DNA of 32,000 bases. Origin: Ignicoccus islandicus DSM 13165 (GTDB taxonomy: Archaea > Thermoproteota > Thermoprotei_A > Sulfolobales > Ignicoccaceae). The notes beneath the pieces were generated by a model. It was given only the letters and a program-made list of their open reading frames with translations. It had not been told where the DNA came from and did not search any database. Position 1 is the first letter of the stretch; each line of letters opens with the position of its first letter. The position numbers and the translations under genes are program-made. Location of the stretch: positions 1,350,001 through 1,382,000 of the forward strand of contig NZ_CP006867.1 of NCBI RefSeq assembly GCF_001481685.1. The letters run 5' to 3'. Positions 201 to 27,525 of this stretch are shown here, one piece after another.

Positions 201-1559
201 TTATATTGATTCAAACGACTTTAGCATAAGTCGTGTACCCCAACCCGTCGGATAGGGCGAGGCCCACCTTACGTTAGCTTCGTGGGCCATGGCTGGTCCC
301 GCTATATCGAGGTAGACCCATGGGTCTGGAGCAAACTCTTTCAAGAATAACGCACCTATGATACTTCCAGCTTGTCTCTTAGATGAAATGTTGGTCATAT
401 CAGCAACTGGATGATCTAAGTCGCTCCTATATTTTTCGTAGAGAGGCATTCTCCAGACGAGTTCGCCTGTGTACTTAGATGCCTCTTCAATTAGTTTAGC
501 GTAGTCGTCGGAGGTTGAGTATAATGCTGCAATATCGTAACCTAGAGCGATTATTTGCGCGCCAGTTAACGTTGCCAGGGTAAAAGTGACTTGAGGAGAG
601 AATTTCTTGATGTAAGTTAGGGCATCAGCCAGTATAAGTCTTCCTTCAGCGTCAGTATTGCCTATATGTACGTATTTTCCAGAATAGCTCCTTATCACGT
701 CTTCCATCTTATATGCCCTACCAGAAACGAGGTTTTCAGCTAAGGGAACGATGGTAGTTAGCTTCACTTTCAAGCCTAGTTTGGCTGCCCAGATAGTTGC
801 TGCCGCAGCGACAGCAGCGCCTGACATATCAGCATGCATATTCTTCATATAGTTCGCGGGCTTCAGGTTGTAACCTCCAGAATCGAAGGTAACTCCCTTT
901 CCTACCAGCCCTACCCTTCTTCCTTCTCCATCATAGTGAAGTATCAGTAACTTCGGTGGTATGTCGGAGCCCTTGCCTACTGCTAGTAGTAACTCTAACC
1001 CCTCTTTTTTGAGATCATCTTGATCTAACACCGTAACGTCTATAGGTAAACCCTTCGCTTGATCCATTACTAATTTAGGAAAGGTTGAAGGGTTGAGTTG
1101 GTTAGGAGGTTCCGATGCTAGTTCTCTTGCGAACATCTGTGCTTCTGAATGAAGCAATGCTCTCTTAACTTCACCTCTCTCGCAGTTATCTACGACGAAA
1201 TATATTCTTCGTTCCTTTTTATTGGATTTATACTTATCGAACTGCCATGAAGTTAGTGCAGTACCCGTGATGATGGGGTAGGGATCATCCACATCTCGCA
1301 AATCAACTACCGAAACCCTGAAGCTTTTCAAGGATCTGCCTATCTTATAGCCGGTCTCTATGTCATTCTTCTTTCCTAAGACCAGTAGTTTTAATTCAGT
1401 GCCTTCCTTGTAAAGGACCGGTTCTATTGACTCGACGTCCTCTGGTAAGACCAGCTGCGGAAGGGTATTCTGGAACTCGTTTCTATCTTCAATTATGTTT
1501 ACCTTAATACCGGGTATGGAAGAGGGATCCGAAGTCGTGCATTTGATTTCTAGAGGAAT
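201..1559 (-). CDS. pepA: leucyl aminopeptidase, peptidase family M17
   Basis: M17 catalytic-domain motifs are present: VGKGVTFDSGGYNLKP, MKNMHADMSGAA, NTDAEGRLILADAL. The canonical-start ORF is 201..1331 (TTG). The frame stays open 77 further codons up to 1562 and encodes an M17 N-domain-like segment. I model the start at ATT 1559..1557, preceded by GGTGAG plus a 6-nt spacer (see findings). Confidence 0.85.
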   Translation of the reverse strand: MPLEIKCTTSDPSSIPGIKVNIIEDRNEFQNTLPQLVLPEDVESIEPVLYKEGTELKLLVLGKKNDIETGYKIGRSLKSFRVSVVDLRDVDDPYPIITGTALTSWQFDKYKSNKKERRIYFVVDNCERGEVKRALLHSEAQMFARELASEPPNQLNPSTFPKLVMDQAKGLPIDVTVLDQDDLKKEGLELLLAVGKGSDIPPKLLILHYDGEGRRVGLVGKGVTFDSGGYNLKPANYMKNMHADMSGAAVAAAATIWAAKLGLKVKLTTIVPLAENLVSGRAYKMEDVIRSYSGKYVHIGNTDAEGRLILADALTYIKKFSPQVTFTLATLTGAQIIALGYDIAALYSTSDDYAKLIEEASKYTGELVWRMPLYEKYRSDLDHPVADMTNISSKRQAGSIIGALFLKEFAPDPWVYLDIAGPAMAHEANVRWASPYPTGWGTRLMLKSFESI

Positions 1560-1613
1560 TTTTTACTCACCGTGTATACCCTTTACGTGAAGGGGAAATT
1601 ACTGTTTTCATAT

Positions 1614-1682: not shown

Positions 1683-2036
1683 TTAGACTATTCCAAGCAG
1701 AATTAGAAATATATACATAATGAGCGCAATTAGTATTGATTGGACTATCGACTTTAGATCTATTTTACTTTCCGTAAAACCTCTACCTGCTAATACCATT
1801 AGAATAAGGCCAAGAACGTTAGTAAACGAATAACCTATCCAGTAGCCGATTTTCGTGTCTATCATGCAACATACTTGAAGTATCTTTGATATTGCAAGAG
1901 ATAATGGGACGTTAACGAATGCGTCGTTCCATGGAGTTAATGGCGATAACAACCATCCAATAATTCCTATGGATATGCGGATCAGTTGCGCCGGGCGTTT
2001 TCGTCCTCCCGAAGTCCTTCCGGAGCTCTTCATCAT
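1683..2036 (-). CDS. small integral membrane protein (3-4 predicted TM segments), function unknown
   Basis: 117-aa ORF with a basic N-terminus (GRTSGGRKRPAQ) followed by hydrophobic stretches (ISIGIIGWLL, VLGLILMVLAG, ILIALIMYIFLILLGIV). GGAG lies about 9 nt upstream of the ATG. Co-directional with the nurA-side gene string. Confidence 0.6.
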   Translation of the reverse strand: MMKSSGRTSGGRKRPAQLIRISIGIIGWLLSPLTPWNDAFVNVPLSLAISKILQVCCMIDTKIGYWIGYSFTNVLGLILMVLAGRGFTESKIDLKSIVQSILIALIMYIFLILLGIV

Positions 2037-2075
2037 CTACCTAAACTCCGAGACCTTCGATAATCTATAAGCATT

Positions 2076-2252
2076 TTAGTCGCGCATAAACCCTGTACAG
2101 TATATACATTTGCAGTTACCGCTTTGCTCGTCGAAAACCAACGCGTAGCAGAAGTTCTCTTGGCATATTTTAAAGCATTCCTTCTCTGACTCGACTTTTC
2201 CAATTTCTATATCTTTAACGGCCGGTTCTATTTTACTCCTTTCTTTACTCAC
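2076..2252 (-). CDS. small Cys-rich protein (58 aa, six Cys), not in the ORF track
   Basis: Hand translation gives MSKERSKIEPAVKDIEIGKVESEKECFKICQENFCYALVFDEQSGNCKCIYCTGFMRD. Its GTG start overlaps the TGA stop of the upstream 101-aa ORF as GTGA (2252..2249), which suggests translational coupling. Confidence 0.5.
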   Translation of the reverse strand: MSKERSKIEPAVKDIEIGKVESEKECFKICQENFCYALVFDEQSGNCKCIYCTGFMRD

Positions 2253-2554
2253 TCTAAACCCTCTAGTAGTTCCTCTGGTATGTAAGAGGAGGGAGACCTT
2301 AATGCTTCTCTAGCCAATCTCCGTACTTCGGGCTTGAGTTTCTTGAAATCCTCCGAATCTATGGAAATAGTCTTTATCTTACCCTTTAGCTTGTCCTTCT
2401 TCTCTTCGAATTCTTTAGGAGGTATTACGAACGAAGCTATTTTCGGATGGGTCTCCGATGGAACTCTACCTACTGCAACTGCTATAGCAACTTCGCCGAA
2501 AGTTCCCCTTTTTGCCTTTATGAGATAGACGTCGACGTCCACCGGTTTGAGCAT
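2249..2554 (-). CDS. hypothetical protein (101 aa)
   Basis: ORF with ATG start and GAAGGGAT 6 nt upstream. It begins 35 nt downstream of nurA on the same strand. The C-terminal half is Lys/Glu-rich. No family recognised. Confidence 0.6.
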   Translation of the reverse strand: MLKPVDVDVYLIKAKRGTFGEVAIAVAVGRVPSETHPKIASFVIPPKEFEEKKDKLKGKIKTISIDSEDFKKLKPEVRRLAREALRSPSSYIPEELLEGLE

Positions 2555-2589
2555 TTTCAGATCCCTTCGTAGCCACTCAAGCTCTGATA

Positions 2590-3657
2590 TTAAAGGGCTT
2601 CCCTTCCGGTTCTAATTAACTCTGAAACGAATGTGGGTAATGCCCTACTAAGTATTAAATCGCATTCAGCGTTACTTATTTTGCTTTTCCTGTGGGCTTG
2701 AGTTAGTGGTAGTGGATAGCCTTTCAAAGAGGTTCGCCTTAGAAAGTTAAATATCTTGTTCATTTCGACTTCATCGTAACTACCTATAACTTCGACCGTT
2801 AGTGGAGCGCCGTTCTTCGAGAGCTTCATATAGGATCTAGTAAGTGTAACCTCTTTCCTGTATTTCTTACAACCTACGACCGTTGTTATCCTCTGTGGTT
2901 TAGTCATACCAACCTTATCTTTAGCCAAGATATTTATAATTCCAATATCCGTTAAGATGTTGTCCCCAAAGAGCTCGTTACTTAGAAACGACTTTCCAAC
3001 ATATATGGTTAGTACGTTATTTGCCCGTTCGGCTACTTCTTTATATAAGTTTTTCTTCCATCCGCATTCTATTTTTATCGCTGTACCCGCATCTAAGTTA
3101 TTAGATTTTATGTAATCTAGAAGTTCAACTAGCCCTCCATCGAAGGGCTCGCAACCATATTTCTCTAAGACTTCTTTGCATCTACTTGCTACGCTGAACA
3201 TACCATCCATTAACATTAATTCAATACTTCTTAATCGATCCACTGTGAAGCCATGTATTTCAGCTTCTAATCCTTCCATATAGAGTATCGTTCTATCTTC
3301 ATACTTCTCATGGGGTATTAATACATCCATTTTCTCTAATATAATAGGTAAGGTATTTCCATTTTTTGAAAATGGTATCGATACTGCCCTTACAGCGAAA
3401 ATTGGATAGGCTTGAAGTTTTTGATTACATTTAGAACCATCAACTGCGCTAAGAGATGACACTTTTAGCTTTAAGTCAGTATCCATATCGCTCTGATCTA
3501 TCCACAATTTATCGAAATCGTCCCTATGTCTCTCAATTACTTCCTTTAGGAAATTCCTATGGACGTGCTTTCTTCGAAAAGCGATGGCATCAGCTAATAT
3601 GCCCTTGTATCGTCTCTCTTCTTCGTTGGCAGACTCGTTGATGAACTTAAAAGCCAC
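2590..3657 (-). CDS. nurA: NurA-family 5'-3' nuclease
   Basis: 355 aa. It carries the NurA-type catalytic Asp motif in LSAVDGSKCNQ, and its size and divergent pairing with a HerA ATPase fit the family. GTG start. Confidence 0.7.
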   Translation of the reverse strand: MAFKFINESANEEERRYKGILADAIAFRRKHVHRNFLKEVIERHRDDFDKLWIDQSDMDTDLKLKVSSLSAVDGSKCNQKLQAYPIFAVRAVSIPFSKNGNTLPIILEKMDVLIPHEKYEDRTILYMEGLEAEIHGFTVDRLRSIELMLMDGMFSVASRCKEVLEKYGCEPFDGGLVELLDYIKSNNLDAGTAIKIECGWKKNLYKEVAERANNVLTIYVGKSFLSNELFGDNILTDIGIINILAKDKVGMTKPQRITTVVGCKKYRKEVTLTRSYMKLSKNGAPLTVEVIGSYDEVEMNKIFNFLRRTSLKGYPLPLTQAHRKSKISNAECDLILSRALPTFVSELIRTGREAL

Positions 3658-3668
3658 CTTTCTTCCCT

Positions 3669-5450
3669 ATGGTAATACCGGAGGATAATGTATATATGGA
3701 GAGAGAGAACAACGAAAGTATCGGATTTGTTATTGGAGAAAGCACGACTAATTACGTCACGGCATCGTTCAACGATTTCGTTCAGCGCGGACAATATGTG
3801 GTACTAAAAACAACCAAGGGTGACGTAATAGGACTTGTGGAAGAAGTAATTAGCAAGAATCCCGTATTCGATAGACCTCTGAGCTTGGAGGACATTTCTT
3901 CATTAATGAATCTTGACGAAAGTATATTGTCGACGAACGATATCGCAATCTATGCGAAAATAAAACTATTAGCACAAATAGAAATTAGCGAAGGCGATTC
4001 CAGAATACGTCTAAGTCCACCTACCACAGCACCGGAACCACTAAGTGAAGTAAGGAGAGCACCAAACGATGTTCTAGAAAAGATATTTTCAAAGAGTCTA
4101 GAGAGAAACGTCATAAGAATAGGTAGGCTTTCAGCTCATCCAGAGGTAAGCGTTTACGTGGATGTTAATAAGATGGTAAGTAGGCACTTAGCTATACTAG
4201 CAGTTACTGGTGCCGGTAAAAGCAACACAGTCACTATCATATCTTCGAGACTCGTTGAGAAGGGAGGTACTATTCTAATATTTGATATGCATGGCGAATA
4301 TTCCAGCGCTTTCGAATCTGATAAAATTAACTTAATACAAGCTAAGGTGAATCCGGCTAAACTAGATATCAGCAGTTTCTCTAAACTAATTGGGTTAAGA
4401 GACGCTCCAAAACAAGAGCTCTACTTGCGCAACATACTCTCAGCATGGGAAGTAATGTATTCTGCGCAAATATATACGAGGGAATCACAACTATTTGATT
4501 TCATTACAACGGCATTAATTGAATTAATGAATGCCTCTAGTAAGGTAGCTTTACCTATTATAAGAAATAGAGAAGTCGTGAGGAAAGTATTGGAAGAATT
4601 AAAAGGAAAGGTCGACCCAAACAAGCCTATTAGGTCATTAAATGATATAGCAAGGCTTTTAGGTAGGGACGATATCGTAAAGACCTTGCAATCATGTTCT
4701 AACTACGATCCATCCATTTGCGAGCATTCCATCGCTCTTCTAGATATAAGCTCAAGTGACAGAAATACTACGTTGCCCTCGCTTTTAGTCAAAATAGAAG
4801 AAAGCCGAAACAGGTACGAAAACATTATAGATTTCAACGTACCTAAAGTAGTTAGCCAAATAGAGCCCGGTAAAGTAAATGTAGTAGATCTAAGTCAAGT
4901 CGATGAGGAAGCAGCAGATATAATAGTAAGTACTATCTTAAGAGACATCCTTCAAGCAAGAAAGGCTTATGTCCAAAAAAGAGATTCAATCAACGGCCTC
5001 GAATACCCTATCTTCTTGGTTCTTGAAGAAGCACACATATTGGCGCCTAAAGATCGTACCACTCTAACCAAATATTGGACAGCTAGAATAGCTAGGGAAG
5101 GAAGGAAGTTCGGTGTAGGTATATGTTTAGTATCACAACGACCTAAGGGCTTAGATCAGGATACCTTAAGTCAAGCGAATAACATGATAGTAATGAGGCT
5201 TATAGAACCAATGGATCAGAAACACGTTCAAGCTAGTAGTGAAAGCTTGAGTGACGACCTACTGAAGCAACTTCCATCGCTCGATGTAGGTGAAGCAATA
5301 CTCCTAGGCCCTATGACACCCCTCCCGGCCATTGTTAAAATAGATAAGGCAGAAGGTAAGAGTCTGGGTAGCGATATAGATATAGTAAGTGAATGGCAGA
5401 ATATCAAAAAGAAGCGCGAATCATATCTCGAGGAGGAGGACGTGTGGTAG
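3669..5450 (+). CDS. herA: HerA-family (DUF87/FtsK-HerA superfamily) hexameric ATPase/helicase
   Basis: N-terminal HAS-barrel-like IGFVIGESTT...GQYVVL, Walker A LAVTGAGKSNTV, Walker B IFLVLEEAHILAP, and the HerA-typical RKFGVGICLVSQRP and VMRLIEPMDQ. An alternative start at ATG 3696 (MERENNESIGFVIGE) has GGAGG 11 nt upstream. Confidence 0.85.
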   Translation: MVIPEDNVYMERENNESIGFVIGESTTNYVTASFNDFVQRGQYVVLKTTKGDVIGLVEEVISKNPVFDRPLSLEDISSLMNLDESILSTNDIAIYAKIKLLAQIEISEGDSRIRLSPPTTAPEPLSEVRRAPNDVLEKIFSKSLERNVIRIGRLSAHPEVSVYVDVNKMVSRHLAILAVTGAGKSNTVTIISSRLVEKGGTILIFDMHGEYSSAFESDKINLIQAKVNPAKLDISSFSKLIGLRDAPKQELYLRNILSAWEVMYSAQIYTRESQLFDFITTALIELMNASSKVALPIIRNREVVRKVLEELKGKVDPNKPIRSLNDIARLLGRDDIVKTLQSCSNYDPSICEHSIALLDISSSDRNTTLPSLLVKIEESRNRYENIIDFNVPKVVSQIEPGKVNVVDLSQVDEEAADIIVSTILRDILQARKAYVQKRDSINGLEYPIFLVLEEAHILAPKDRTTLTKYWTARIAREGRKFGVGICLVSQRPKGLDQDTLSQANNMIVMRLIEPMDQKHVQASSESLSDDLLKQLPSLDVGEAILLGPMTPLPAIVKIDKAEGKSLGSDIDIVSEWQNIKKKRESYLEEEDVW

Positions 5451-6199
5451 TAGGAATAGCAATTGGTGGCGTAAGCGGTATCGTTCCAATAATCCTGAGG
5501 AAATCTGACCTTAAGAAGATATTAGTATTGCGAAATTGTAAGTACAAGGAAGTTAAATGGGCTCGTAAAGTCCTACCAACAATTTTTGAAGTTAACCCTA
5601 GTACAGTTATCTCTAAAAAAGAAAGCTTAGAAGGTCAGCTAGCGTCAAAAGGTTTTACTGTATACGTTCAATGCATGAAGTCTCCATGGAAACTCGTACT
5701 CGAGGATTTCGAGAGGTTCCTTAACGGTGAAAGAATCATCGTTGGAGACGTTTCATGTATTGGAAGTTTCTTTCCAAGCAGATGTCAACCTTCAGCGTTG
5801 GGTTTAGCGGTAATTGATGGACGAGAAGGCGAGTTAGTTACGCTACGACTTGGCAAACCACCTTCTGATATTATATGCGTAGCTCAAGTTTTGAAAAAGG
5901 TATCTTCATGTTTAAGGGAAATAATGAGAACGGATACTCAATCGGTTGAAAACGTAAGAAGGATTATAGATTACTTAGTCGCCAAGAACCCGAATATGAT
6001 GTTATTAGAATTTAAGCGCGAATTGAGCAACAATGAAAAGATATACGTGTTCGATCTTAAATGTTTTTATGAGAAGTTAACGTATCTAAGGGATTTAAGA
6101 GATCATGGTCCTCAGTATCTAAGAAACTTGAGGTGCGAGCTAAGTGAAGGTGAGAGGGATCAATTGTTAGAGTTCTTTAGAAAGTTCGTTGGTGATTAA
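5444..6199 (+). CDS. hypothetical protein coupled to herA (251 aa from GTG 5444; 268 aa if ATG 5393)
   Basis: The ORF is in the -1 frame relative to herA and overlaps its 3' end. AGGAGGAGGA (5431-5440) sits just upstream of in-frame GTG 5444, while ATG 5393 has no SD. The N-terminus is hydrophobic (VVGIAIGGVSGIVPIIL). No family recognised. Confidence 0.6.
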   Translation: MVVGIAIGGVSGIVPIILRKSDLKKILVLRNCKYKEVKWARKVLPTIFEVNPSTVISKKESLEGQLASKGFTVYVQCMKSPWKLVLEDFERFLNGERIIVGDVSCIGSFFPSRCQPSALGLAVIDGREGELVTLRLGKPPSDIICVAQVLKKVSSCLREIMRTDTQSVENVRRIIDYLVAKNPNMMLLEFKRELSNNEKIYVFDLKCFYEKLTYLRDLRDHGPQYLRNLRCELSEGERDQLLEFFRKFVGD

Positions 6200-15931: not shown

Positions 15932-17623
15932 TTACTTGTTTGTTAGTTGTAATAATGTATATACATGCATTGCTGAGAGTTCGTAAAACAGCACGGAACT
16001 CGCAGGATCTGATGAAGATAACTTGCGTGCCGAATACTGGTATATCTCAGCGATTACAGGATTTAATTTATTGGATTTCGCAAGAGATAATGCTATTCCG
16101 GAGGCGTATTCACTTTTCTTAAGAACGTTTTCTAAACTAATTGAGTAGTTGACGTGAAGTTCGTAAGTAAGGATAGCATTCAAGTACATGCCAGCAGCCA
16201 TCTTTTGAAGAGGGCCTTCGGATGATGCTAGTTTATATATCCCTATGGCCTCTTCACCGCTTCTGTCTAAGTTTATGTTCATTGCAAGTATGTAGGCCAG
16301 AATAGTATTAGCAGAAGAATAGACCGCTTCAGCAGTCTTGGTGAACCTTCCTTTATCTATACTCTCACCTTTACTGAAAACGTTGGCTAGTTGTAACCAC
16401 GTTCGTGTTGCAAGAGCGTAGTATTTAGAGTATATTAGATACTGAAGTATGTCGTTTAGTTCCGTTGAATTGAGTGCTTCGTGATAGTAATACTTTGCAC
16501 GTAAGTACCTATTTGCTGACGTGAGAAGTATATCTATATGGTTAGAATCAAAGTATTCATAACTATATTGGTTAAGTAACCCTCTAACCTCTTTTAAGAG
16601 ACTCTCTACGTTGTCTGCCAATTCTATTAAGCTCTTAAATCCATTTAGAACCATCTTCTCATACCAGTAGGCAGTTTCAGCTCTTATTGCGGCAGTGAAC
16701 GCGTAGTTTACCGAACTATACACATCAGTAGATCTCAGTTCATCCGCTTTCTCTGCAGCAGTTCTCGCTTGATCTATTAGTTCAACGCTTACATGCGTGA
16801 GGCCTTTAACAGACCTTTCATATTTTCTATACATAGATAGATAGTAATCAACCCAATTCGTCATAACGTCTCTTACCTCCTTTGGCAATTCGCTTACCAG
16901 TAAGGGTCGAGGTACTATTGGAGGATTGTTTAGCCAGTATCTTAGTGCTTCGAATATTGTTTTCACGGGAACTACTTTAACTCCTAATTTCTTACCAAAG
17001 TCTATTAAGTTAACTTCTTCAGACTTTATCGTTTTGATTACCCCGAAAGGTGAATTAATGGTAGTGGCTCTACTGATTGTAGCGTTTTCTTCACCGAATG
17101 GTAAGAGGAATACCGTATAACCTTTCTCTGCAGCAGCTTGTAGTTTATAATACGTGCCTCCAACGGGCCCTATCGTTCCGTCTGGACTTATCGTACCTGT
17201 GCCAGCTACGTTAGTCTTCGGTTTTTGGTTAGTTAACGCTGCGTAAACAGCTACCGTCATTGCCATGCCGGCACTCGGTCCGCCTACGATTACGCTAGGA
17301 GTCTTGAAGCGAAAGAAGAAGTCATACTTAGTCCAATCCTTCTTTGCTATTGCGGAAGCCACCAGAACAGCTATTCTTGCTATACCCTGGGTGTCCACTT
17401 GGGTTAAAGGTTCCGAAGATACGTAGATAGAACCGGATCCCGGATATGCTACTACTACTGTTAAGTTTCCGACCACACCTTCCATTCCGTTCTCAGTGAA
17501 AGTTACACCGATTACTGGAACAGTTACAGTAGAAGCCTTTTCGTAACACTTACTAAATGCATAGGCGCTACCACTTGCGAGAAGAATCAAAACGAGTGAA
17601 ATTGTAAGCGACTTGATACTCAA
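15932..17623 (-). CDS. secreted or membrane-anchored Lon-like serine protease (S16 domain) with a long C-terminal helical domain
   Basis: N-terminal signal-like segment SLVLILLASGSAYA. S16 catalytic Ser motif VIVGGPSAGMAMTVAVYAAL and Lys motif GPVGGTYYKLQAAAEKG. About 330 further residues are rich in predicted helices, Tyr and Ala. No AAA+ domain. Confidence 0.75.
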   Translation of the reverse strand: MSIKSLTISLVLILLASGSAYAFSKCYEKASTVTVPVIGVTFTENGMEGVVGNLTVVVAYPGSGSIYVSSEPLTQVDTQGIARIAVLVASAIAKKDWTKYDFFFRFKTPSVIVGGPSAGMAMTVAVYAALTNQKPKTNVAGTGTISPDGTIGPVGGTYYKLQAAAEKGYTVFLLPFGEENATISRATTINSPFGVIKTIKSEEVNLIDFGKKLGVKVVPVKTIFEALRYWLNNPPIVPRPLLVSELPKEVRDVMTNWVDYYLSMYRKYERSVKGLTHVSVELIDQARTAAEKADELRSTDVYSSVNYAFTAAIRAETAYWYEKMVLNGFKSLIELADNVESLLKEVRGLLNQYSYEYFDSNHIDILLTSANRYLRAKYYYHEALNSTELNDILQYLIYSKYYALATRTWLQLANVFSKGESIDKGRFTKTAEAVYSSANTILAYILAMNINLDRSGEEAIGIYKLASSEGPLQKMAAGMYLNAILTYELHVNYSISLENVLKKSEYASGIALSLAKSNKLNPVIAEIYQYSARKLSSSDPASSVLFYELSAMHVYTLLQLTNK

Positions 17624-19026: not shown

Positions 19027-19866
19027 ATGAATTTTAGAAAGTATCCAGTGAAAGGGAGCAAAGTTTGTTTGAAGAGCAATAAAATAGCAGTTCTGCGACG
19101 AGAAGGTGGTCTTGCAATTATTGATGTTAATAGCAATAGCGTTAGGTTAATAGGAGGTTTCTTCGTATTCAAGGACTTTGCATGGGGGACGAACCGAATT
19201 GCTGCTTTAACTCATAACGTAGCGATGCTATATGATCACGATGGAACCCTTTATAAAGTAATTAAGTTCGACAGTGAGGCGTCAACTGTTGCATACCTAA
19301 ATAATTTCTATTTAGTTGGTACAACTGATGGTAACTTAGTTAAATTCAATGAAGACGGACAAGTTATCTGGAAGAAGAAAATATGGGATGGTAGCATAGA
19401 TAGAATAGATCTAACGCAGAGTGGATACATCATAGTGGTCGCATCTTCAACAAATATGGTTCTACTTAATCAAAATGGGGATGTGATTACAACTCATAGT
19501 TACCAATGGGATCTAACTAGAGTTGCTTGGACCAGTGATTTGAGCTTCCTAGCGGTGCCTGTTCAAAACTATGTTATTATATATAGATGGGATGAGAAAC
19601 AAGGGTACGTTAAGGACAAGGAAATTAGAGTAAATAGCGTTAGGAAGCTCAAGTGGTGTGAAAATAAACTTGCCATTGCTGATTACAAGGAATTTCTTGT
19701 CCTTGAGTACTCTAAATCATCTATATCGTTGCGTCTAAGGCTTGAGGTTATAGACTTCAGTTGGAATGAAGAATGTAGAGATCTAACCTTACTATCCCCA
19801 AATTACCTCTACTACTTGAAAGACGTAAATTCAATTGCAACAAGTATATCATCTTCATCAGCGTAA
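19027..19866 (+). CDS. beta-propeller repeat protein (about six blades), function unknown
   Basis: About six recurring units of roughly 40 aa, each with hydrophobic strand pairs and D/N-G turns (for example LVGTTDGNLVKFNEDGQVIW and IIVVASSTNMVLLNQNGDVI). GGGGTG lies 8 nt upstream of the ATG. Confidence 0.55.
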   Translation: MNFRKYPVKGSKVCLKSNKIAVLRREGGLAIIDVNSNSVRLIGGFFVFKDFAWGTNRIAALTHNVAMLYDHDGTLYKVIKFDSEASTVAYLNNFYLVGTTDGNLVKFNEDGQVIWKKKIWDGSIDRIDLTQSGYIIVVASSTNMVLLNQNGDVITTHSYQWDLTRVAWTSDLSFLAVPVQNYVIIYRWDEKQGYVKDKEIRVNSVRKLKWCENKLAIADYKEFLVLEYSKSSISLRLRLEVIDFSWNEECRDLTLLSPNYLYYLKDVNSIATSISSSSA

Positions 19867-27204: not shown

Positions 27205-27525
27205 CTAGAGTAGTATATCACTCAATTTTATAAGAGATTCATTGCATATTTTCATCTTACAGAACCTAACGCCTTCCAACTCCAGTAACCTCTTTTTGAA
27301 CTCTCTTCCGAGTTTGTAACCACCTACGTCTAAGTCTTTTGGAACAACTCTATGACATGGCACTACTATCAGTTTTTCATTGGATGCTAACATTTTCGCG
27401 ATCGCTCTAGGATGTGTATTCAAAATATTGGCTAGGTCTGAATACGTTACGACTTTACCTATGGGTACTAAATTGAGGATTACTTCTAGTAACTCCCGTT
27501 TCGTAGTTTTATCTAAGGTTCCCAC
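27205..27525 (-). CDS. ogt: methylated-DNA-protein-cysteine methyltransferase, short form (C-terminal DNA-binding/active-site domain only)
   Basis: Active-site motif VVPCHRVV, preceded by a helix-turn-helix-like VTYSDLANILNTHPRAIAKML. At 106 aa it lacks the usual N-terminal domain. GTG start. Confidence 0.8.
   Translation of the reverse strand: MGTLDKTTKRELLEVILNLVPIGKVVTYSDLANILNTHPRAIAKMLASNEKLIVVPCHRVVPKDLDVGGYKLGREFKKRLLELEGVRFCKMKICNESLIKLSDILL

Follow-up and report, generated by a model that had tools for sequence, protein, structure and literature searches.

The 32-kilobase (kb) stretch of Ignicoccus islandicus DSM 13165 analysed here (the window) contains a locus at positions 1683–6199 in which a nurA gene and a herA gene are divergent. 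The NurA nuclease is encoded on the minus strand (2590–3657; 355 amino acids, aa) and the HerA hexameric DNA-translocating ATPase on the plus strand (3669–5450; 593 aa from the first start). On its strand nurA is followed by three small open reading frames (ORFs), and herA is followed by an ORF of 251 aa. A sequence-only reading had placed all six ORFs, and the ORF list agrees with it in their coordinates and in the minus-strand gaps, which are 35 nucleotides (nt) between nurA and a 101-aa ORF, −4 nt between this and a 58-aa ORF with six Cys, and 39 nt between the six-Cys ORF and a 117-aa ORF. The same reading described a head-to-head pair standing alone. This is also correct. Neither Mre11 nor Rad50 is found in the window, nor in the 6–10-kb flanks of any Ignicoccus-like locus fetched.

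The locus was compared among seven lineages: I. islandicus, I. hospitalis, I. pacificus and the uncultured lineages L008, L010, L012 and L094. Identity to the window protein is highest for the M17 peptidase (64–74%), followed by the 101-aa protein (57–65%), PyrH (51–63%), HerA (46–53%), the six-Cys protein (30–59%), the 251-aa protein (28–43%) and NurA (24–45%). NurA is thus the fastest evolving of the seven proteins compared.

The HerA-NurA pair

The NurA sequence matches the Pfam family NurA (PF09376) with 36.1 bits, above the cut-off of 21, and its PDB sequence match is the Sulfolobus solfataricus structure 2ygk (33.6 bits). The LSAVDGS motif lies at residues 69–75. Four residues, D73, E128, D151 and H322, are invariant among six NurA orthologues that share just 24–45% identity. 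With a score above the gathering threshold and the catalytic D, E, D and H in place, the protein is a member of the NurA family.

The HerA sequence probably begins at M10 (nt 3696), which matches the GenBank model of 584 aa. The Walker A motif (GAGKSNT, residues 181–187) is encoded at 4209–4229 and the Walker B motif (LVLEEAH, residues 450–456) at 5016–5036, both on the plus strand. Both Walker motifs and the REGRKFG motif are conserved. The Pfam scores are 147 bits for DUF87 and 36 bits for HerA_C. The HAS-barrel-like N-terminus named in the sequence-only reading does match the HAS-barrel family, but with 24.1 bits, which is just under the cut-off of 25.2. The top PDB sequence match is S. solfataricus HerA (4d2i; 331.6 bits), and the alignment is full length. 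The protein has the architecture of repair-type HerA, which consists of a HAS-barrel, a RecA-like ATPase with Walker A and B motifs and a helical insertion domain. It also belongs to arCOG00280 by way of its syntenic orthologue Igni_0735, which is 585 aa long and 46% identical (PMC3149612 Table S1). Motifs, Pfam and PDB matches therefore agree that a NurA nuclease and a HerA ATPase are transcribed divergently, as had been read from the sequence.

The region between the two genes (3658–3695) is 11–38 nt long, depending on the HerA start, and it was compared with the intergenic regions of orthologous loci. A/T-rich boxes are located at 3683–3695 and at approximately 3646–3652, the latter within the first nurA codons. 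This short region must carry putative back-to-back promoters.

HerA-family ATPases are also known from defence systems, such as SIR2-HerA and DUF4297-HerA (models NF042943 and NF042944). The locus could accordingly be read as an anti-phage system of the HerA-plus-effector type, in which NurA and the small proteins act as effectors or sensors. PADLOC HerA models do match the window HerA, the best being PDLC04105 at 223 bits. The anti-phage models NF042943 and NF042944, however, reach only 172.9 and 123.3 bits, far short of their respective cut-offs (850 and 800), whereas the repair model gives 408 bits. The euryarchaeal repair HerA model of NCBIfam gives 284.7 bits, which is also below its cut-off. 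Neither NurA nor any small protein has a PADLOC or PHROGs match, and no SIR2, DUF4297 or other effector domain is detected in the neighbouring genes with Pfam. The locus is fixed in housekeeping synteny throughout the genus and has no island-like variability, and the G+C composition is uniform along the window. Taken together, the HerA score is below the anti-phage cut-offs and there is no adjacent effector. On its sequence the window HerA is closest to repair-type HerA and not to anti-phage HerA. The defence-type module proposed in the sequence-only reading is not supported, and we regard it as extremely unlikely.

In a large protein search, the HerA proteins of the Ignicoccus clade (575–605 aa) are followed by canonical HerAs of approximately 500 aa from many archaeal phyla, with scores of 378–420 bits. 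These include the Pyrolobus HerA (P0027), which is about 40–41% identical to the window HerA and is encoded within a herA-mre11-rad50 cluster. A neighbour-joining tree includes 26 non-Ignicoccus archaeal HerA loci; Mre11 or Rad50 is encoded within 6 kb in 20 of these and in none of the Ignicoccus loci. In this tree, which is indicative only, the Ignicoccus clade and the HerA of locus L009 form a long branch beside the Pyrolobus-type clade linked to Mre11 and Rad50. In loci of both canonical HerA clades, nurA is directly upstream of herA. The adjacency of nurA and herA is therefore a conserved core, which is inverted in Ignicoccus.

The Ignicoccus HerA owes its extra length to an insertion of approximately 70 aa in the helical domain, as seen in a MAFFT alignment with canonical HerAs of approximately 500 aa. 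In the window HerA it spans residues ~292–361 (4542–4751, plus strand), between Walker A and Walker B, and holds a conserved C-x(5-8)-C pair (C343 and C351). In the PDB alignment, residues 246–362 match residues 215–265 of 4d2i. The insertion is common to the Ignicoccus clade and to the L009 protein (P0017). P0017 (L009 4759–6522; 587 aa, 40% identical) is the closest non-Ignicoccus HerA sharing the insertion. Its gene stands alone, without nurA, between asparaginase and epimerase genes, and a gene with a Csa3_N domain (L009 8838–9491) lies 2.3 kb downstream of it.

Dispersal of the resection genes

The gene data for I. hospitalis are taken from Table S1 of Giannone et al. 2011 (PMC3149612), in which abundance is given as RSpC. 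The orthologous locus contains Igni_0735 (arCOG00280 HerA, 585 aa, RSpC 38), Igni_0736 (arCOG00367 NurA, 342 aa, RSpC 6.0), Igni_0737 (the orthologue of the 101-aa protein, 103 aa, RSpC 281.8) and Igni_0734 (the orthologue of the 251-aa protein, 271 aa, not detected by proteomics). The SbcD/Mre11 protein is Igni_0278 (arCOG00397, 384 aa) and the SbcC/Rad50 protein is Igni_1385 (arCOG00368, 878 aa); both were detected (PMC3149612). In I. hospitalis, Mre11 and Rad50 exist, are expressed and are dispersed even from one another.

The same table lists a second arCOG00367 NurA, Igni_0403 (366 aa, RSpC 17.7), a second arCOG00280 HerA, Igni_1170 (601 aa, RSpC 45), and a HerA-family ATPase of arCOG00286, Igni_0221 (402 aa, not detected). 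Igni_1170 adjoins genes for a Zn-ribbon protein, a beta-lactamase-fold hydrolase and an Lhr helicase, and has no NurA beside it (PMC3149612). In this genome the pair of the type found in the window is the only physically linked herA/nurA pair. The second HerA and the second NurA, which the sequence-only reading had anticipated, do exist but are unlinked, and Mre11 and Rad50 are present elsewhere. A scan of a genome collection with HerA returned I. pacificus once; the scan relies on exact peptide patterns, so a second HerA may still be present there.

Fragmentation of conserved archaeal gene clusters has been described in I. hospitalis by Podar et al. 2008 (PMC2614490). Table S2 of that study counts the HerA paralogue families arCOG00282 and arCOG00285 and the NurA-like arCOG00287 among the lost genes, and neither Mre11 nor Rad50 appears in its lost-gene tables. 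A literature search for Ignicoccus together with Rad50 or Mre11 returned nothing useful in main texts. The locus does not form a canonical herA-mre11-rad50-nurA cluster, which has Mre11 and Rad50 adjacent.

The locus is probably the HerA-NurA DNA-end-resection core of I. islandicus, parted from Mre11-Rad50 by operon fragmentation and placed amid lineage-specific orphan genes. In the Sulfolobus, Pyrococcus and Thermococcus enzymes, a HerA hexamer is known to thread double-stranded DNA into a NurA nuclease dimer, which degrades it. By homology, the I. islandicus proteins would act in the same way. The ancestral nurA-herA-mre11-rad50 cluster would have been broken up in Ignicoccus genomes. The adjacency of nurA and herA would have been kept, yet inverted to the head-to-head arrangement around the 11–38-nt promoter region, and mre11 and rad50 would have been relocated to separate sites. 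The Ignicoccus HerA would have acquired its insertion of approximately 70 aa, and HerA and NurA would evolve fast while retaining their catalytic residues.

Several observations weigh against this explanation. The best score among HerA models, 407.6 bits for HerA_Thermprot (NCBIfam NF040937), is under the equivalog cut-off of 800. The NurA_Sulf model of NCBIfam matches NurA over its full length with 69 bits against an equivalog cut-off of 400. The window HerA is 41% identical to that of Pyrolobus, which also belongs to the Desulfurococcales, and the euryarchaeal Methanobrevibacter HerAs are 42–47% identical to the Pyrolobus protein. The HerA tree is a simple neighbour-joining tree. The evidence for Mre11 and Rad50 comes from published tables of the congener I. 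hospitalis and not from I. islandicus itself, and I. hospitalis has the second HerA and NurA of the same arCOGs.

Some of these points agree with a different explanation, in which the pair in the window is a paralogous HerA-NurA machine. It would serve another DNA-processing task with lineage-specific partners, at least the 251-aa protein, and copies of the Igni_1170 and Igni_0403 type would serve Mre11-Rad50. That I. hospitalis has two arCOG00280 HerA genes and two arCOG00367 NurA genes is congruent with this, as are the equivalog scores below threshold, the lineage-specific HerA insertion, the conserved overlap of herA with the 251-aa gene and the fast evolution of NurA and HerA within the genus relative to the M17 peptidase. 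The window HerA is, however, much nearer to repair-type models than to any other HerA family, and the pair retains the nurA-herA adjacency typical of canonical loci. Igni_1170 is not among the 120 best matches of the window HerA, and its neighbours are a Zn-ribbon gene and the Lhr helicase gene rather than nurA. Three of the four proposed partner genes are not specific to the pair. The paralogy stated in the sequence-only reading therefore holds insofar as extra copies exist in I. hospitalis (Igni_1170, Igni_0221 and Igni_0403), but the window HerA is closest to the repair type, and its I. hospitalis orthologue belongs to the only linked pair of that genome. Most of what the sequence-only reading had named as grounds for giving up its inference is observed. 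A separate paralogous machine is unlikely.

If the locus is the resection core, the missing mre11-rad50 beside herA-nurA reflects operon fragmentation and not a new system. The resection genes of I. hospitalis are dispersed and its HerA and NurA are duplicated, which provides a natural test of the extent to which the four proteins need to be co-regulated.

Genes adjoining nurA and herA

All seven lineages share the gene order M17 peptidase, (DUF7980), six-Cys, 101 aa, NurA, HerA, 251 aa, pyrH and livFGMH, with NurA and HerA divergent and the DUF7980 gene variably present. Each of the six other Ignicoccus-like lineages fetched has orthologues of the 101-aa, six-Cys and 251-aa ORFs, which are therefore real genes. 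Across the group, synteny extends to the housekeeping flanks as much as to the small genes, so co-occurrence within the group cannot show a functional link. Outside the group, none of the small neighbour genes adjoins HerA in any of approximately 85 non-Ignicoccus HerA loci. The co-occurrence with HerA across archaea that the sequence-only reading proposed as a check is not borne out. Their conservation beside the orthologous pair holds within Ignicoccus-like genomes, except that four of the seven lineages lack the membrane gene.

The sequence-only reading also treated the four small genes as tightly coupled partners. The coding share of the window is approximately 93%, same-strand gaps have a median of 11 nt, and the unrelated genes pyrH and livF are separated by just 10 nt. 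Short gaps are thus the background in this window, and tight spacing is no sign of a functional module. Of the proposed coupling, the start/stop coupling of the 251-aa gene to herA is constant and the other three genes are not specific to the pair. If the locus is the resection core, the small genes would be Ignicoccus-restricted orphans packed in this dense coding DNA. The 101-aa and six-Cys genes would then form an independent unit with its own promoter, and the membrane gene would come and go.

The 117-aa ORF (1683–2036, minus strand) belongs to DUF7980, with a precomputed Pfam match to PF25937 that extends to its I. pacificus and L008 orthologues. A hydropathy scan finds at least three hydrophobic segments. 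I. islandicus, I. pacificus and L008 have the gene, and I. hospitalis, L010, L012 and L094 lack it. As it varies among lineages, it is no core part of the locus.

The 101-aa ORF (2249–2554, minus strand) is the first gene of a two-gene unit with the 58-aa, six-Cys ORF (2076–2252, minus strand). The latter begins with GTG, and its start overlaps the stop of the 101-aa gene by 4 nt (GTGA); it is translationally coupled to that gene. The 101-aa protein is basic, with an isoelectric point (pI) of 9.2. An exhaustive phmmer search of 1.84 billion representatives finds only two clusters for it. One of these, P0132, is 53% identical and occurs on small contigs of an organism with 52.5% G+C. In the outgroup locus L091 (1233–1681), a 52-aa protein with all six Cys (1523–1681) is encoded 2 nt downstream of P0132. 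Around this pair lie an iorA-like gene, a gene of 157 aa and a TIP49-like gene, and neither NurA nor HerA is present on the 1.9-kb contig. A scan of JGI metagenomes with the 101-aa profile finds a single further syntenic Ignicoccus-like locus.

The six invariant Cys of the 58-aa protein form the pattern C-x3-C-x4-C-x11-C-x-C-x2-C and may bind metal or form disulfides. The protein has a PAN_1 (PAN/Apple) score of 20.1 bits, below the Pfam cut-off of 21.4, and is not assigned to that family. No signal peptide is found in it, and it is probably cytoplasmic.

In all six Ignicoccus-like loci, an A/T-rich, TATA-like box is located approximately 30–45 nt upstream of the 101-aa start, at or just past the nurA stop. 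In the window, this box (TTTAATAT, 2587–2594, minus strand) overlaps the nurA stop and lies 33–40 nt upstream of the start codon. It is a putative promoter of the 101-aa/six-Cys unit. The orthologue Igni_0737 is approximately 47-fold more abundant than NurA (RSpC 281.8 versus 6.0; PMC3149612 Table S1). The upstream box and this difference in abundance mark the two genes as an autonomous transcription unit, separate from nurA. The box and the L091 contig, on which they occur without the pair, speak against their recruitment as subunits of HerA-NurA. The two genes are a conserved unit in their own right, the 101-aa member of which is abundant in the I. hospitalis proteome.

The 251-aa, Cys-rich protein (EYM_07735; 5444–6199, plus strand) is the sole neighbour consistently coupled to herA. 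Its gene overlaps the herA stop by 7 nt in the window, and in each of the six loci with gene calls the two genes overlap or are at most 2 nt apart. A word-indexed search with the family profile finds 10 members in 5.8 billion proteins, all of them Ignicoccus-like. Its invariant features are seven Cys, a GG motif that follows strand 1 and a GD motif that follows strand 4. Neither the 251-aa nor the 101-aa protein has a significant match in Pfam, NCBIfam, PADLOC, PHROGs or PDB sequences, and seven members of the 251-aa family have no sequence-level match to any Pfam model. A profile alignment with hhalign shows no relation to the gene downstream of the Thermodiscus herA, which is pyrF. The 251-aa gene converges with pyrH, and the two share 33 nt at their 3′ ends (6167–6199); the gene calls available for five other loci all show a comparable overlap.

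The AlphaFold2 model of the 251-aa protein, from a 10-sequence alignment, is confident (predicted local distance difference test, pLDDT, 93.2; predicted template modelling score, pTM, 0.90). It consists of a six-stranded, Rossmann-like alpha/beta N-domain and a helical C-domain. In a Foldseek search of predicted viral structures (BFVD), the model resembles a DUF1152 protein of Hyperionvirus (A0A3G5AD54; E 9e-9, probability 1.0, template modelling (TM) scores 0.63/0.52). No DUF1152 Pfam match is found at E up to 1 in seven members of the family, and a literature search found no paper treating DUF1152. On the evidence of the predicted model, the protein is described as DUF1152-like by fold. The overall fold predicted for the 251-aa protein resembles that of this one predicted DUF1152 (PF06626) structure; the window protein is approximately 65 residues shorter and has seven invariant Cys.

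When the full-length model is searched against the PDB, S. solfataricus Csa3 structures rank first and second: 2wte (E 7.4e-4, probability 0.85, 242 aligned columns) and 6w11. This raises the question of a Csa3-like regulator, with a Rossmann/CARF-type sensor and a helical DNA-binding domain, acting on the divergent nurA/herA promoter. In S. islandicus, Csa3a binds and activates the herA and nurA promoters (PMC5587795), and the 251-aa protein is basic (pI 9.1). The TM score to Csa3 is, however, only 0.29–0.33, and the DUF1152 match is much stronger. The isolated N-domain model (pLDDT 81.6) does not favour CARF proteins: its best match has an E of 0.08, and Csa3 ranks 26 and 32 with a TM score of approximately 0.39. 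No Csa3_N Pfam signal is found in seven members of the family. The match to Csa3 thus fails at the domain level, the confident model and its DUF1152-like fold are retained, and the protein is not assigned to the Csa3/CARF regulators. A Csa3/CARF identity was dropped, as the isolated N-domain is generic Rossmann-like and DUF1152 matches far better. Regulation of the promoter by a Csa3-like 251-aa protein is very unlikely.

An accessory or regulatory partner of HerA is a plausible role for the 251-aa protein, which is the only such candidate among the neighbours. In a more specific form, it would be a dedicated, Ignicoccaceae-specific accessory subunit of HerA-NurA, perhaps docking on the HerA insertion of approximately 70 aa. 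This is quite unlikely. If true, the subunit could partly replace or regulate the coupling to the dispersed Mre11 and Rad50, and the DUF1152 fold would gain its first functional context.

The remaining genes of the window are housekeeping genes, including those for the M17 peptidase, PyrH, the liv ABC transporter, fumarase and aIF5B. Scans for tRNA and Rfam families find no feature in the window. The M17 leucyl aminopeptidase ORF (201–1560, minus strand) begins with TTG at nt 1331 and encodes 376 aa; the orthologous ORFs are 434–468 aa long. The 77 in-frame codons upstream of this start look coding (…IIEDRNEFQNTLPQLVLPEDVES…), yet none of them is ATG, GTG or TTG; the gene could be truncated or start at a non-canonical codon, or there could be an error in the sequencing. 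A 279-aa protein (19027–19866, plus strand) has a weak match of the beta-propeller/WD40 type, which fits the WD40-repeat family expansion reported in I. hospitalis (PMC2614490). A 106-aa protein (27205–27525, minus strand) consists of the DNA-binding C-terminal domain of O6-methylguanine-DNA methyltransferase alone (PF01035, 71.8 bits). In a 563-aa protein (15932–17623, minus strand), the sole Pfam match is the Lon protease C-terminal proteolytic domain (residues 92–179), and no AAA+ module is detected with Pfam.

The locus is largely ordinary. It is also cautionary: short distances between genes and synteny at genus level are no sign of a functional module in a 93%-coding, strongly rearranged hyperthermophile genome.

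Comparison with known systems

The S. solfataricus HerA and NurA (4d2i and 2ygk; arCOG00280 and arCOG00367) have the same architecture as the window pair, with a HAS-barrel, a RecA-like ATPase with a helical insertion and the NurA fold. The Walker motifs, the NurA D, E, D and H residues and the adjacency of nurA and herA are common to both. In canonical loci the two genes are co-directional, whereas in the window they are head-to-head. The canonical cluster has mre11-rad50 alongside, and the window pair does not. Unlike its canonical counterparts, the window HerA has the insertion with a Cys pair and equivalog scores below the cut-offs, and the window NurA evolves unusually fast.

The anti-phage HerA systems resemble the window pair in that a hexameric ATPase of the HerA family has a nuclease-type partner. 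They differ in having a SIR2 or DUF4297 effector and a defence-island context, whereas the window pair has a conserved housekeeping context.

Stand-alone nurA-herA operons, found in Thermodiscus and in Desulfurococcales metagenome-assembled genomes (loci L017, L019 and L020), likewise have no mre11 or rad50 in the flanks fetched. The gene order in L017, L019 and L020 is p27 Zn-ribbon, nurA, herA and pyrF. The runs of these genes in L017 (4271–8269) and L019 (2661–6881), with no Mre11 or Rad50 nearby, show that split clusters also occur outside Ignicoccus. In S. islandicus, SiRe_0094/0095 is a HerA-NurA pair without adjacent Mre11-Rad50 (PMC5587795). These stand-alone pairs differ from the window pair in that their genes are co-directional, their HerA falls in another clade of the neighbour-joining tree, and they have neither the HerA insertion nor the 251-aa gene.

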